From contig NW_027117339.1 in NCBI RefSeq assembly GCF_038025025.1, forward strand, positions 744,001 to 808,000: a stretch of 64,000 bases of DNA. The letters are read 5' to 3'. The notes below the pieces were generated by a model. That model was not told where the DNA came from. It worked only from the letters and a program-made list of their open reading frames with translations, and searched no databases. The position numbers and the translations under genes are program-made. The stretch comes from Phyllosticta citribraziliensis. Its lineage: Eukaryota. This document shows, piece by piece, positions 56,664 through 61,735 of this stretch. How positions within the stretch are numbered: the first letter of the stretch is position 1; each line of letters begins with the position of its first letter.

Positions 56664-56737
<74 letters not shown>
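56664..56737. repeat. (GA)n microsatellite, about 37 units
   Basis: Uninterrupted GA dinucleotide run. Confidence 0.97.
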
Positions 56738-56742
<5 letters not shown>

Positions 56743-57373
56743 TTGGGAAGATGGAGATGGAGATGCAGCAGCTGTCTTCTTCTTCTCCTCCTCCTCCTCC
56801 TCTCTCATATCCTCTCTCATCCACATCACCATCGCTTCCTTTCAATCTTCATACCTCCCCTGGACGGCATGGCATAGCAAAGAGGACGTGTGGCCTTTCT
56901 CAAACCGATAAGGCAAGCAAAAGAAAGTTTGACTTTGCAGACCTCCTCTCCAGCACTTCTCCACACACCCACCCACCCATACCAGCCAGCCACCCAGCCA
57001 GCCAGCCTAGAGCAAACACCATGGCAGTGGGCCTGTTCTGTTGCTGACGCGCTCACGGCTCCCGCCGGTGATTGCGGCGGTCATTAGACGCGGCGCAGTC
57101 GGTTGATGGTTGGTGCACGGGGTTCTCGGTCGCCATCGATCGACTCTGGGGAACTGTTTGGAGTGGGGAGCACGGATGTCTCGTCTGCCGGCGCAGCGTA
57201 AGCGTCGTACATAACGACAAGTCACTCAGCCAACAGCAACGCTCCTGAGAGGGCAACCCAAACATGCTCAATGAATGCAGCAGCGACAATCTATCAAGGG
57301 TACCAATAGAAGAGAAAGTAATCAAGACGAGGCTCATTGAGGCCAAGAACCAAGACATGACAGCGTGGACATT

Positions 57374-59074
57374 CTACTTCCTTTTCCCTTTCTTCTTACC
57401 ACCACCACCGCCACCGCCAGTCTTTGCACTCCTTTCCCTGACACCAGCCGCATCTCTTGTACTTCTGTCTTTGCCGCTCGAGCTTGCGGCCGCCTGCGCC
57501 TGTTTTTGCTTGTCCTTATCCTTACTTCTCTCGAAGCCGCTGCTGCCGCTTCCACTCCGCCCAGCCGGATCATCGGCGTTTTGCTCGTACTCGACGCGCA
57601 CCTCATCCTGGTTCCTCCCCGCACTCCTGATACCGCCGTACTCGTACATCCGCGCCAAACCATCTCCTTGCGCATATCCATGCACGAGAGATGGATCTGA
57701 GAAACTGGCCGCAGCATTGGTCGCATAGCTGGCGCCTTCGCGCCGCCCGACGGGCACTCTCCGCGGAACCCTGGCGTACGCGACGCCTCCAGACGGGTAC
57801 GGATACGTTGGGCCGCCAGTCTGGTACGCAAATGGGTCAAGGGGCATGGGAGGAGGGCGCTCAGAGGGATGAATAGGGTATGGCGGGGTAGAAGAGTGAA
57901 CTTGGCGTGGCGGGAGGCGAGGATGAGGGTAGTCGTCTGGTTCGGCCATGTCAGGACCAGTGCCGGAGTTTTGAGAGTCGTAGGACGAGGCACGGCTTTC
58001 TGCACGATAGCTTGCTTCATCTGCAAAGGAACCTGGGACGTCGTAGATGGGGCTACCAGGGACATTTCGGTTGCGATCAATAGTGTTGGGAGGCGAAGGG
58101 GTGAAGTGACTTTCTTTGCTGCTGCGGCTGCGCACGCCCTGGCTTTGGTCGCTGACACTGCGGTAGTTGGCCCGCGAGGTGCCAGTAGAGTAGCCAAGAG
58201 GAGCGGCACCGCCGCCTGGGACAATGAAGCCAGGAGGGCCAGGAGAAGGGGAGCTGGAATCGCTGGGAGAGAAATCGAGGTTGTGGCGTTGATTGGTGTT
58301 GCGGGAGTCTGGCGCCAAGAGCGGAGCACGGGAGGCTTTCTTGGTAGGGCGGGAGCTTGAACCTCCCGACGAGGGCCGTGCGGAAGACGGATCAGCAAGG
58401 GCGGGAGGCAATTGACGGGAGCGCGGCCGGGTCAGAATCTCTAGCTCTTCGTGTGTAAGACTGACGTCTGGCTGGCCACGGGCGCGAGCAACGCGGACGC
58501 GGTCGAGAGCGCGCTGGAAAAGATATTCCTCGTCGTCCGGATCCAAGTACTGCTCCGAGCCGCCGCCTCGACCATGATAATCATCTTGATAGTAGTCGTC
58601 CTCATAGGCAAAGCGGTCCTCTGGGAACCGCGGTCGTGAATTAATACCTTTACCAAGCAAGTACTCGTCAGAAAGAGAAGCCTGTCCCATCCCTGCTCCC
58701 TTTTGCATCTGCGGGTCTAGAAAGGCGCCGCGGGGTGCAAGGCGGAGCCCAAAATACTCGTCATCGTCACTGTCGCCCAGCTCCTGAAATCTGCTGCTCC
58801 CGTATGGTACACTGCCCCTCAAGTCAGACCTCCCCAATCGTGCTGCCCTCCCCCCGGGTGGTCTTCCCCATTGGGGCACACTGTCGTATGGAGTTCGCGG
58901 CCGACCACCTAGACCGCCTCCTCGGAAAAAGCTGACTCGATTGGCTTGTCCATGAATGTGGCGTGGCCGAGAATGGTGACGGCCGAGGCGCCAATGAGCC
59001 ACAGAACGGTCGTGATGGGGGAGGCCCACAGACCCAAGGGAACGGCAATGACGAAGAGAGCCGTGTACAGCTGG
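57374..59074 (-). CDS. Long uncharacterised ORF overlapping the YIP3 3' end in the -1 frame; start unresolved, first ATG at 58708
   Basis: Frame open from 59074 to stop 57374. Protein-like segments PYDSVPQW, ELGDSDDDEY and EEYLFQRALDRVRVARARGQPDVSLTHEELEIL. Ends KKKGKRK. Confidence 0.7.
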   Translation of the reverse strand, partial: PAVHGSLRHCRSLGSVGLPHHDRSVAHWRLGRHHSRPRHIHGQANRVSFFRGGGLGGRPRTPYDSVPQWGRPPGGRAARLGRSDLRGSVPYGSSRFQELGDSDDDEYFGLRLAPRGAFLDPQMQKGAGMGQASLSDEYLLGKGINSRPRFPEDRFAYEDDYYQDDYHGRGGGSEQYLDPDDEEYLFQRALDRVRVARARGQPDVSLTHEELEILTRPRSRQLPPALADPSSARPSSGGSSSRPTKKASRAPLLAPDSRNTNQRHNLDFSPSDSSSPSPGPPGFIVPGGGAAPLGYSTGTSRANYRSVSDQSQGVRSRSSKESHFTPSPPNTIDRNRNVPGSPIYDVPGSFADEASYRAESRASSYDSQNSGTGPDMAEPDDYPHPRLPPRQVHSSTPPYPIHPSERPPPMPLDPFAYQTGGPTYPYPSGGVAYARVPRRVPVGRREGASYATNAAASFSDPSLVHGYAQGDGLARMYEYGGIRSAGRNQDEVRVEYEQNADDPAGRSGSGSSGFERSKDKDKQKQAQAAASSSGKDRSTRDAAGVRERSAKTGGGGGGGKKKGKRK

Positions 59075-59439
59075 CTAGAGGTAGCCCTGGCAAAGCCGAC
59101 GTCCAAGTCTTGGCCTCCCAGCTTGCCAATGCCGTACATGCCACCAGCGACGAGGATGATGACGAAGAGCAGCACGGGGTTTGTGAGGAGCGAGTAGATG
59201 GCCAGCATGACGAAGAGGACGGCATAGTTGGAGCTGAAGTAGCCCAGGTTGTAGTTCATGCGCGACTGGACCTCGCTGAAGTTTGCTGGTTTGCTTATGC
59301 GCTTGACGTCGAAGAATTCGCCGACGGGCTTGAGGTTGGCGAAGCGCGTGGACAGAGAAGTGTTGCGCACGCCCTCGAAGCGCGAGCCCAGGTTCAGGCG
59401 CGACGACAGGGCGTCGATGGGGATGCTGAGGCGGGACAT
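58909..59439 (-). CDS. YIP3: Prenylated Rab acceptor PRA1/Yip3 (176 aa)
   Basis: LKPVGEFFD..SKPANFSEVQSRMNYNLGYFSSNYA, two long hydrophobic hairpins, LGHATFMDKPIESAFSEEAV*. Confidence 0.93.
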   Translation of the reverse strand: MSRLSIPIDALSSRLNLGSRFEGVRNTSLSTRFANLKPVGEFFDVKRISKPANFSEVQSRMNYNLGYFSSNYAVLFVMLAIYSLLTNPVLLFVIILVAGGMYGIGKLGGQDLDVGFARATSSQLYTALFVIAVPLGLWASPITTVLWLIGASAVTILGHATFMDKPIESAFSEEAV

Positions 59440-60106
59440 GGCGAGGAATAGAGTGATTGGAAAAAAGGGTGTTGGCCGACGTTGGGGAAGTCTATAAAGG
59501 GGTGGTTTTTTAGCTCTTGTTACTTTTTGGCGGCGCGGCGCCGTTTCACGGGTGTGTGGACAAGGATGGGGGATGGTAGCGAGCGGCAATTGTTTGGAGG
59601 GGGCTGGGAGCAGACTGACAGTAAGTGATGGTAGCTGGGTGGAGCGAAAGAAAGTGGTGAATGTTGAGGGGGGGAGAGGGAGACGAGATGGGAGGAATCT
59701 TTGCGCCTTGCAAAGGGAAAGGGAAAGGGACGACGTGTCGTGAGGGCCCGAAGCCGAAGCGGAGGGAAGGAGGCAGCGACGGAAGGCGAGCACAGCCGCA
59801 GCCCAGCCTCGCAGCCTCGCAGCACCTCAGTAGCGGCAGCCTGGCGTGGCGGTGCTCTCTCGACTCGCACTCGCACTCGCGCTCCCCTGACGATCAACGC
59901 GGGCCAGGGCCAGCAGCAGATCGAAAAGACTCGACTCAACGCGACTCCCCGCAGCGTGGCACAGACCTCGGACAAACGAACTCAACAGAAGTCGAGACGA
60001 GAATAGTCAGAGCCAGAGCCAGAGTTGGAGGATTCCTGTCGCTTTTAACTGCAGTCGAGGCTTGCGCGCGTCGGGTAGGCCCGCAGTTTGGCGCCGACGG
60101 CCCCTC

Positions 60107-60288: not shown

Positions 60289-61735
60289 ATGAAGCTCTCT
60301 GCGCTGGCAACCGTGCTGCTCTGCACCTTTGTCTCTCTGGTCGCCGCCTGGTCCAAAGAAGGTGCGTTCCGCCGATACCACATACATATTCAACATGCCA
60401 TTGAGACGCGTCCTCGCCTCAGGCGTCTTCCACGCCACCCTGCTAACCGCCCTTGCAGACCACGAAATTTTCCGTCTCCGCGACGAAGTCATCGCCGGCG
60501 AAGGTCCTGATGCCACCTTCTACTCTTTCCTCGGCGTGTCCCCCGCAGCTACCCAGGACCAAATCAACAAGGCCTACCGCAAGAAATCCCGCCAAATCCA
60601 TCCCGACAAGGCGCGTCAAGCTTACATCGCAACCTACGCCAAACCGGACCCCAAGTCCAAGTCCAAAGACAAGTCCAAGAAGAAGCCCGGCGTCACCGTT
60701 CGCAAACAACCCACTGCCAAAGAACTCAAGGCCTTTGACAAGGAGGCTTCAGCCCGCTTTGCCCGCCTCGGCATCGTCGCCAACATTCTGCGTGGCCAGG
60801 GGCGCGAGCGCTACGACCACTTTTTGAAAAATGGCTTCCCCGCCTGGCGTGGCACTGGCTACTACTACAGCCGTTTCCGCCCCGGCCTCGGTTCCGTCAT
60901 GGTTGGTCTTTTTGTCTCCATGGGCGGAGCCGCACACTACGGCGCGCTATACTTGGGTTGGAAGCGCCAGAGGGAATTTGTTGAGAGGTACATCCGCCAT
61001 GCCCGGCGCATGGCATGGGGCGACGAACTCGGGATCCAAGGGCTTCCTGGTGGACTCGGTGTCGAAGGTGTGACTACCTCTTCCCCGGAAGCCGGTGCGG
61101 GCTCAGAAGAAGAGAAACAATACGTCGATGAGAACGGAAAGCCGGTCGTAATGAATCGCAAGCAGAAGCGCGCACAAGAAAAGCTCGAAAAGAAGGAGGC
61201 CGCCAAGAAGGGCGAGAAGAACGCAAAGGTCGCAAACAAGGCAAAGAACGGCGGCGTGAGCACGCCCGTCGAGGCAGAACTGACCAGCGGTGGTCCTCAG
61301 GGCGCTAGGAAGAGGGTTCAGGCAGAGAACGGCAAGGTCTTGATCGTGGACAGCGCCGGCAATGTGTTTTTGGAAGAAACGACAGACGAAGGAGAGACGC
61401 ACGAGTTCCTCCTCGATGTAAGAGCAAACCCCTCAGAACACTTCGAAGCTAGACTAACAGCACTCCAGGTCGGAGAAATCCCCAGGCCCACATTCCGCGA
61501 CACCGCCGTCGTCCGCCTGCCCGCCTGGGTCTACAACAAATCCCTCGGCCGCCTCTTCGGCTCCTCCCAACAAGCTTCCCTCGACCATGACATCCACGTC
61601 GACGTCGACGGCTCGGAAGACGGCGAGGGATACGCAAACGGCGATGCAAAGGACTCGGTCGACATCCTGAAGAGCGCTGCCTCTGCCAACCCCAACGCCG
61701 AGATCAGAAAGAGAAGGGCGAAGAGGAACAAATAG
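60289..61735 (+). CDS. ERJ5: ER membrane DnaJ co-chaperone, Erj5-like
   Basis: Signal peptide MKLSALATVLL..AAWSKE|DHEIFRL with intron 60362-60458. J-domain with HPD (QIHPDK), RERYDHFLKNGFPAWRGTGYYYSRFRPG and a TM helix. Second intron 61418-61468. Confidence 0.85.

Follow-up and report, generated by a model that had tools for sequence, protein, structure and literature searches.

The closest described system to the locus treated here is PaYIP3 (Pa_1_8470) of Podospora anserina, a gene from which a short Yip3 and a long fusion protein are produced by programmed -1 frameshifting (Malagnac et al. 2013, PLoS One 8:e73772, PMC3777964). The locus itself is a YIP3/PRA1 gene of Phyllosticta citribraziliensis, on the minus strand between positions 57,374 and 59,439 of a 64,000-nucleotide (nt) stretch of contig NW_027117339.1 (positions 744,001 to 808,000), and this whole stretch is called the window. 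According to the main text of PMC3777964, on which the statements about P. anserina rest, a single mRNA carries the YIP3 open reading frame (ORF) and a 3' ORF in the -1 frame, the latter being exclusive to Pezizomycotina. Shifting is proposed to take place on U UUU UCC at codon 170, a heptamer off the X XXY YYZ consensus. It is followed, after a 2-nt spacer that the authors call unusual, by a stem-loop that may close into a pseudoknot and has a 'highly conserved bulge of 3 nt in stem 1'. Twelve P. anserina cDNAs are collinear with the gene across the site and differ only by an intron in the 5' untranslated region (UTR), where an intron of 173 bp is described. The long form was detected in vivo as a GFP fusion by western blot; it localizes to endoplasmic reticulum/Golgi-like foci and was not seen in the fruiting-body centrum. 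The layout is kept in all the Pezizomycotina examined by the authors, except for two species (PMC3777964).

Other recoding systems share part of this design. Viral -1 signals of the infectious bronchitis virus (IBV) type resemble the locus in the -1 shift, the G-C-rich downstream stem and the possible closure into a pseudoknot. However, they combine an X XXY YYZ heptamer with a spacer of 5-9 nt and an H-type pseudoknot, whereas the heptamer in the window is off consensus, its spacer has 2 nt and the gene is cellular. The P. anserina structure could not bring the IBV slippery site to IBV levels (PMC3777964). The mammalian genes Edr/PEG10 and Ma3 are likewise cellular genes that extend a protein by -1 frameshifting, and a 3-nt bulge is found in the Edr pseudoknot as well (PMC3777964). 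Both genes derive from retro-elements, an origin of which the same source sees no sign in YIP3; its authors consider YIP3 the first cellular eukaryotic gene outside those of retro-element descent to extend its protein by a -1 frameshift. The nearest variants are the YIP3 loci of Capnodiales and Ophiostomatales, which hold the same two ORFs and also require recoding. In contrast to the window, where the 3' ORF lies in the -1 frame and both heptamer and stem are intact, their 3' ORF is in the +1 frame (PMC3777964).

The locus in the window is, with a probability of about 0.9, one gene, an orthologue of PaYIP3 that would use a programmed -1 frameshift; homology with the experimentally studied orthologue suggests the same recoding in this fungus. 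A single mRNA would carry the YIP3/PRA1 ORF together with the Pezizomycotina-only 3' ORF in the -1 frame. The majority of ribosomes would stop at the UAG at 58911..58909 and release the 176-aa Yip3. A minority would slip back by one base on U UUU UCC (58930..58924), with a GC-rich bulged stem-loop, possibly a pseudoknot, starting 2 nt downstream of the heptamer, and these ribosomes would read the -1 frame to 57377, giving a 688-aa Yip3 fusion. The finding is a real and already published system. A -1 slip at GCU-UUU-UCC had been the leading mechanism of the initial annotation of this DNA, which was right on this point: the slip is supported, and it is the mechanism shown experimentally for PaYIP3. 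The fusion, which the same annotation had put at ~690 aa, computes to 172 + 516 = 688 aa and 74.1 kDa for a slip after Ser172, compared with 61.6 kDa for the long form of PaYIP3.

The identity of the 5' ORF, named YIP3/PRA1 in the initial annotation, is confirmed by a match to the PRA1 family of Pfam (PF03208) with an E value of 1.1e-41 over profile positions 2-142 of 143. The ORF ends with ...TCA GCT TTT TCC GAG GAG GCG GTC TAG, with its stop at 58911..58909 on the minus strand. The positions previously given for this end and its stop (58909-58911), for the opening of the second frame (59074) and for the ATG codons at 58708 and 58871, the latter an out-of-frame ATG on the minus strand, are all correct. 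The heptamer was also rightly described as departing from the canonical X-XXY-YYZ, since U UUU UCC is off consensus and followed by a spacer of 2 nt.

The resemblance to P. anserina extends over the whole signal. Both loci have a YIP3/PRA1 5' ORF, a homologous 3' ORF in the -1 frame, a heptamer at about codon 170 that is identical to the published site ('codon 170'), a 2-nt spacer, and a stem 1 that is G-C-rich at its base, carries a 3-nt bulge and holds the 0-frame stop in its loop. A comparison by eye with the 59-nt P. anserina fragment that was tested shows identity at 39 of the first 43 nt. The four differences are one spacer base (GA in the window, GG in P. anserina), one bulge base (GAA versus GAG) and both sides of one stem-1 pair, a U-A pair in P. 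anserina and a C-G pair in the window, which is a compensatory change. Unlike PaYIP3, the locus of the window belongs to a different fungal order, and the experiments are known from P. anserina.

The -1 frame is open for 566 codons on the minus strand (59074..57377, with its stop at 57376..57374). No Pfam family matched this frame at E values up to 0.1, and the 3' ORF is of low complexity with short conserved motifs and a basic tail, KKKGKRK. The open frame by itself is weak evidence and is rejected as proof, because the -1 frame stays open in 11% of mononucleotide shuffles of the 200-nt spacer (2272 of 20000; 63% G+C); homology is what decides. A word-indexed search with the 566-codon frame matched 11 proteins, one of them the window's own 444-aa model. 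The other 10, together with 47 proteins from a full HMMER scan, make up a set of 57 homologues from which the window's own protein is excluded. The nearest three matches, with 77-85% identity, come from Phyllosticta capitalensis, P. citrichinensis and P. citriasiana. In the homologues, a motif of the FFRGGG type is followed by PxWGRP and then by an acidic type, FQELxSDDD; FFRGGG[L]GGR is found in 13 of the 57 models, and versions with one substitution were seen by eye in 2 more. The ATG-less stretch at the beginning of the 3' ORF (FFRGGGLGGRPRTP..PxWGRP..acidic motif) is kept as protein across distant fungal classes. The impression in the initial annotation that the stop-free codons ahead of the ATG at 58708 look protein-like is thereby borne out.

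A further, independent comparison draws on environmental fungi. Metagenome contigs were scanned for a degenerate pattern that spans the heptamer plus the six and two-thirds codons after it, so that the presence of the heptamer in the fetched loci is by construction. At least 114 loci matched, and at least 93 of them are YIP3 sites that continue with FFRGGGLGGRP in the -1 frame. Among the matches listed, to which all further counts of sites and loci refer, the PRA1 C-terminus D[KR]PI is encoded in the 0 frame at 92 of 93 YIP3 sites, the exception being cut at a contig end. Another 21 loci were unrelated chance matches and were dropped. Collapsing identical sequences left at least 70 distinct sites, the window included. 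All 70 have the 0-frame stop six codons past the UUU, and the expectation that -1 phase and spacing would be preserved in relatives agrees with this uniform layout (70 of 70). Complete -1 ORFs measure 213-518 codons (median 453, n = 43), while the other 27 run off the available DNA. Of the 63 distinct loci with at least 100 codons available, 58 have the acidic motif at ~40-70 codons after the shift, and in 36 the first -1 methionine follows the shift by more than 60 codons or is absent from the available part.

Upstream of the heptamer the picture is different. The overlap and its stop-free -1 frame had also been expected to be preserved, and this holds downstream of the heptamer but not upstream, where the -1 frame is closed within 6 codons at 32 of the 70 distinct sites (one further case is truncated) and within 2 codons at 23. 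The length of the upstream open frame varies from 1 to 203 codons, and an upstream -1-frame ATG of any kind is present at only 5 of 70 sites. On this comparison, the upstream open frame of the window (58925..59074) is judged incidental, neither conserved nor required by the proposed mechanism. In many species the 3' frame is predicted to be enterable only within the ~9 codons between the upstream -1 stop and the YIP3 stop. Such close upstream stops point to the heptamer as the entry point and count against an upstream non-AUG start or splice acceptor. Reinitiation or a non-AUG start, which the initial annotation had offered as another route to the second protein, is not supported as a conserved mechanism, given the same 32 of 70 sites. 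As an observation on the composition of these stops, a TGA stands in the -1 frame two codons before the heptamer at 20 of 70 sites (e.g. L001, L005 and L016), where, read by eye, it arises from the 0-frame codons GAT GAG (Asp-Glu).

No RNA-seq run of this species turned up; transcript data come as contigs of a relative, about 88-99% alike, from four RNA-seq runs of one plant-metagenome study. One contig spans 57314..58925 and covers the whole 3' ORF, the ATG-less stretch included, reaching into the last YIP3 codons; a second spans 58897..59487. In the fourth run a single unbroken contig (58856..59487) passes across heptamer, stem and YIP3 stop. Across the four runs, no joint is present in 58700..59440 in the relative's contigs. 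In the other three runs the contigs stop at 58897 and 58925 and are linked by a 31-letter unitig of higher depth (58896..58926). Since the block is nearly identical in many fungi, this stop is probably an assembly branch in a block common to several fungi and not a transcript end. The regions 57000..57311 and beyond 59496 are gaps in the contigs and uninformative, and contig depths cannot rank the two ORFs.

Table 1. Features of the YIP3 locus in the window (positions count from the first letter of the window; RNA letters unless stated otherwise)
Feature	Position	Strand	Remarks
5' ORF, YIP3/PRA1 orthologue	58909..59439	minus	intronless, 176 aa + stop, predicted 19.1 kDa
Open -1 frame before the heptamer	58925..59074	minus	48 sense codons directly preceding the heptamer
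Slippery heptamer U UUU UCC	58924..58930	minus	0 frame GC[U UUU UCC], codons 170-172 (Ala-Phe-Ser)
Spacer GA	58922..58923	minus	2 nt, heptamer to stem 1
Stem-loop 1, overall	58890..58921	minus	GC-rich, 3-nt bulge
Stem 1, 5' arm GGAG-GCGGUC	58921..58912	minus	
Loop UAGGUGGUC (DNA letters TAGGTGGTC)	58911..58903	minus	9 nt; holds YIP3 stop UAG 58911..58909
Stem 1, 3' arm, first part GGCCGC	58902..58897	minus	
Stem 1, bulge GAA	58896..58894	minus	3 nt
Stem 1, 3' arm, second part CUCC	58893..58890	minus	
GTG codon (Val of SVPQWGRPPG)	58877..58879	minus	ATG and model start here in some relatives
Proximal candidate partner UGCC for loop GGUG	58875..58878	minus	4 pairs; inside the 2013 reporter fragment
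Distal invariant block UGGGGAAGACCACC	58857..58870	minus	encodes W-G-R-P-P; starts 20 nt after stem 1
First in-frame ATG of the 3' ORF	58706..58708	minus	200 nt past the YIP3 stop
3' ORF read from the shift point	57374..58924	minus	516 codons + stop, -1 frame

The alternative that survives best, though at a low probability, holds that there are two separate genes, in which the 3' ORF would have its own transcript start in or after YIP3 and would be translated from the ATG at 58708 or from the near-cognate GTG at 58879. Public gene models speak in its favor, as a stand-alone model of 444 aa starting at the ATG at 58708 (P0001, 100% identity) exists for the exact sequence of the window. Moreover, 17 of the 57 homologue models (P. 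capitalensis P0004 and 16 others) begin with a methionine exactly at PxWGR, and the rest include later starts. The codon at the position of GTG 58879 is ATG in 15 of the 53 environmental sites that could be parsed, out of 59. The RNA contigs of the two ORFs also differ in mean depth, 39.5 versus 23, a weak point, as expression cannot be read from contig depth. Against this reading, the peptide before both candidate starts (RGGGLGGRPRTP) is kept across classes and lies in frame straight from the heptamer, and 36 of 63 loci have no methionine within 60 codons. In P. anserina, the long fusion is seen on the western blot, and a PaYIP3 copy from which the YIP3 promoter region was missing, together with 350 bp of the 5' UTR, is inactive (PMC3777964).

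The codon before PxWGRP deserves a closer look in this respect. An enrichment of ATG at this position was considered as the sign of a second start and rejected, as the codon is of the form NYG with six variants: GTG 18, ATG 15, GCG 10, TCG 5, TTG 3 and ACG 1, plus one mis-parse. ATG is one form among equals and is not specially favored there, and its presence among the NYG forms is the reason why annotators start models at this point in some species. As a side observation on annotation, the public models of the relatives use three different starts, or reach a fusion through invented introns. None of these gene models can be right if frameshifting is the mechanism.

Less probable still is a fusion made by splicing, in which an intron of 3n+2 nt near the end of YIP3 would join the two frames. 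Several public models assume just this: 11 of the 57 join the YIP3 N-terminus to the 3' ORF, with the frame changing shortly before FFRGGG (e.g. P0009, P0011 and P0012). By hand count, however, a junction like that of P0009 would require a gap of about 35 nt here, which is shorter than is usual for fungal introns. The initial annotation had likewise proposed splicing to the AG at the stop codon; neither form finds support in the unjoined RNA contigs of the relative (58700..59440, all four runs), nor in the 12 P. anserina cDNAs, which are identical to the gene across the site (PMC3777964). The -1 stop within 2 codons of the heptamer at 23 of 70 sites leaves no room for an upstream acceptor, and splicing is close to refuted. 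The least probable alternative, a chance open frame in G+C-rich DNA with coding only after the ATG at 58708, gains something from the 11% of spacer shuffles that stay open but is, on the conservation data, refuted: the ATG-less stretch contains two conserved peptide motifs, PxWGRP and the acidic one, present in 58 of 63 distinct loci, and the only indel of the relative in this stretch, among the indels listed, has 3 nt.

The structure downstream of the heptamer was examined in an alignment of 59 sequences, formed by the window and 58 distinct environmental segments; duplicates were collapsed and three true sites that are too short were omitted. The search pattern had fixed most G residues of the 5' arm of stem 1, and left the 3' arm and everything downstream unconstrained. 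All 10 pairs of stem 1 are paired in 100% of the 59 distinct sequences. One pair shows a compensatory change, from C-G to U-A, in 2 sequences, and two other pairs vary on one side with pairing retained. The second base of the spacer is A in 38 sequences and G in 21. Stem-loop 1 also occurs in the minimum free energy (MFE) fold of the 126-nt region, a single-sequence fold that places pseudoknots outside its model and gives no support by itself. As DNA, the ~43 nt that hold the heptamer and stem 1 (58890-58932) are nearly identical in environmental fungi of several lineages, with most of the alignment columns invariant.

Two mutually exclusive partners for a candidate stem 2 use the same loop bases, and neither of them shows a two-sided change. 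The proximal pairing is paired in 98.2% of cells, YGCC is found in 52 of 53 parsed sequences, and one change from U-G to C-G favors this partner. The distal one lies in an invariant block, in which GACCACC (58863..58857) is perfectly complementary to GGUGGUC of the loop (58909..58903) over 7 pairs; with GACCAYC as the partner, 99.5% of cells are paired. Its one-sided changes mostly retain pairing (G-C to G-U in 24 sequences, U-A to U-G in 2), and the pairing is broken in two cells of two sequences. Of 20000 shuffles of the 90 nt that follow, 81 contained a perfect 7-mer complement by chance. Left unprompted, RNAalifold chose the distal pairing and extended it to a longer helix that competes with stem 1.

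The distal block is also peculiar in its codons: of the 53 parsed sequences, all have GGA and AGA, and 51 have CCA. The remaining 6 of the 59 were not parsed by the regular expression, yet they hold the same distal block in the alignment. Elsewhere in the 3' ORF of the window these codons are minor ones (GGA 7 of 50 Gly, AGA 4 of 44 Arg, CCA 11 of 47 Pro). This freezing of synonymous codons indicates that the block is under constraint at the RNA level. The 59-nt fragment of the 2013 reporter assays stops short of the block, UGGGGAAGACCAYC. It is a tentative idea, rated well below even odds, that the natural frameshift stimulator is larger than this fragment by way of the distal block. In that case, the block and stem 1 could together fold into an H-type pseudoknot, in which loop 1 would have 2 nt and loop 3 would be long. 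Alternatively, the block could pair into a long-range helix in competition with stem 1, and so work as a switch. If true, a fragment ending before the distal block might explain both the ~1% activity in yeast and the failure to act on a canonical slippery site.

Several points weigh against the frameshift reading of the locus as a whole. The MFE of the 126-nt region is unremarkable, with a z score of -0.95 and 36 of 200 shuffles folding equally well. Covariation support for stem 1 is thin, with one compensatory pair in 2 of 59 sequences, because sequence variation is so low. The experimental evidence (collinear mRNA, long protein, ~1% shift) comes from the P. anserina orthologue only. There, the yeast reporter gave only ~1% shifting compared with 0.3% for the out-of-frame control, and no function was detectable for the long form by itself, which did not complement the deletion (PMC3777964). 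The RNA contigs are those of a relative and break inside the conserved block in three of the four runs; they fit one collinear mRNA and yet are no proof of a single transcript. Finally, an extra independent initiation at the GTG at 58879 or the ATG at 58708 is possible.

KKXX or KXKXX at a C-terminus is a COPI retrieval signal. The initial annotation had read the tail of the 3' ORF as a possible signal of this kind, and the tail of the window, KKKGKRK, does fit the KXKXX pattern (Lys at -3 and at -4 or -5). As a conserved signal the proposal does not stand: a di-lysine end is found in only 10 of the 43 complete 3' ORFs among the matches listed, and the rest have mixed Arg/Lys tails. While the window fits by pattern, its orthologues are mostly without the motif, and for this reason the conserved feature is the basic tail and not KxKxx.

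Some features of the surroundings stand apart from the recoding signal. In the 5' leader of YIP3 (59487-59637), a contig of the relative from one RNA run skips 149 nt and inserts 33 other letters; the ends of the skipped segment are not GT..AG, and it is probably a case of sequence divergence rather than an intron. The divergent neighbor on the plus strand is an open frame of 480 codons (60293-61735) containing ...KAYRKKSRQIHPDKA..., which is presumably J-domain (DnaJ) like. The long artificial SLSL/RERE frames on both strands downstream of the 3' ORF stem from a perfect (GA) dinucleotide repeat with 37.5 copies (56664-56738).

Malagnac et al. (2013) was the only match found for a YIP3 frameshift in Pezizomycotina. 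Among the matches listed, PaYIP3 led to this paper and one review only, and frameshifting in Phyllosticta to a mycovirus review only. In the main text of PMC3777964, the words Dothideomycetes, Botryosphaer-, Phyllosticta and Guignardia are absent. Two results may be new, the entry-point evidence from upstream -1 stops and the distal invariant block.

The YIP3 locus was recognized as a case of recoding from raw sequence alone, which shows that genuine recoding can be detected by reading of this sort. The environmental set, in turn, flags the distal conserved RNA block as a testable hypothesis. Gene callers handle the YIP3 locus badly, the 3' ORF being modeled in the window as a stand-alone protein of 444 aa, and in Phyllosticta, as in other Pezizomycotina, the locus should be annotated as a single gene with ribosomal slippage.

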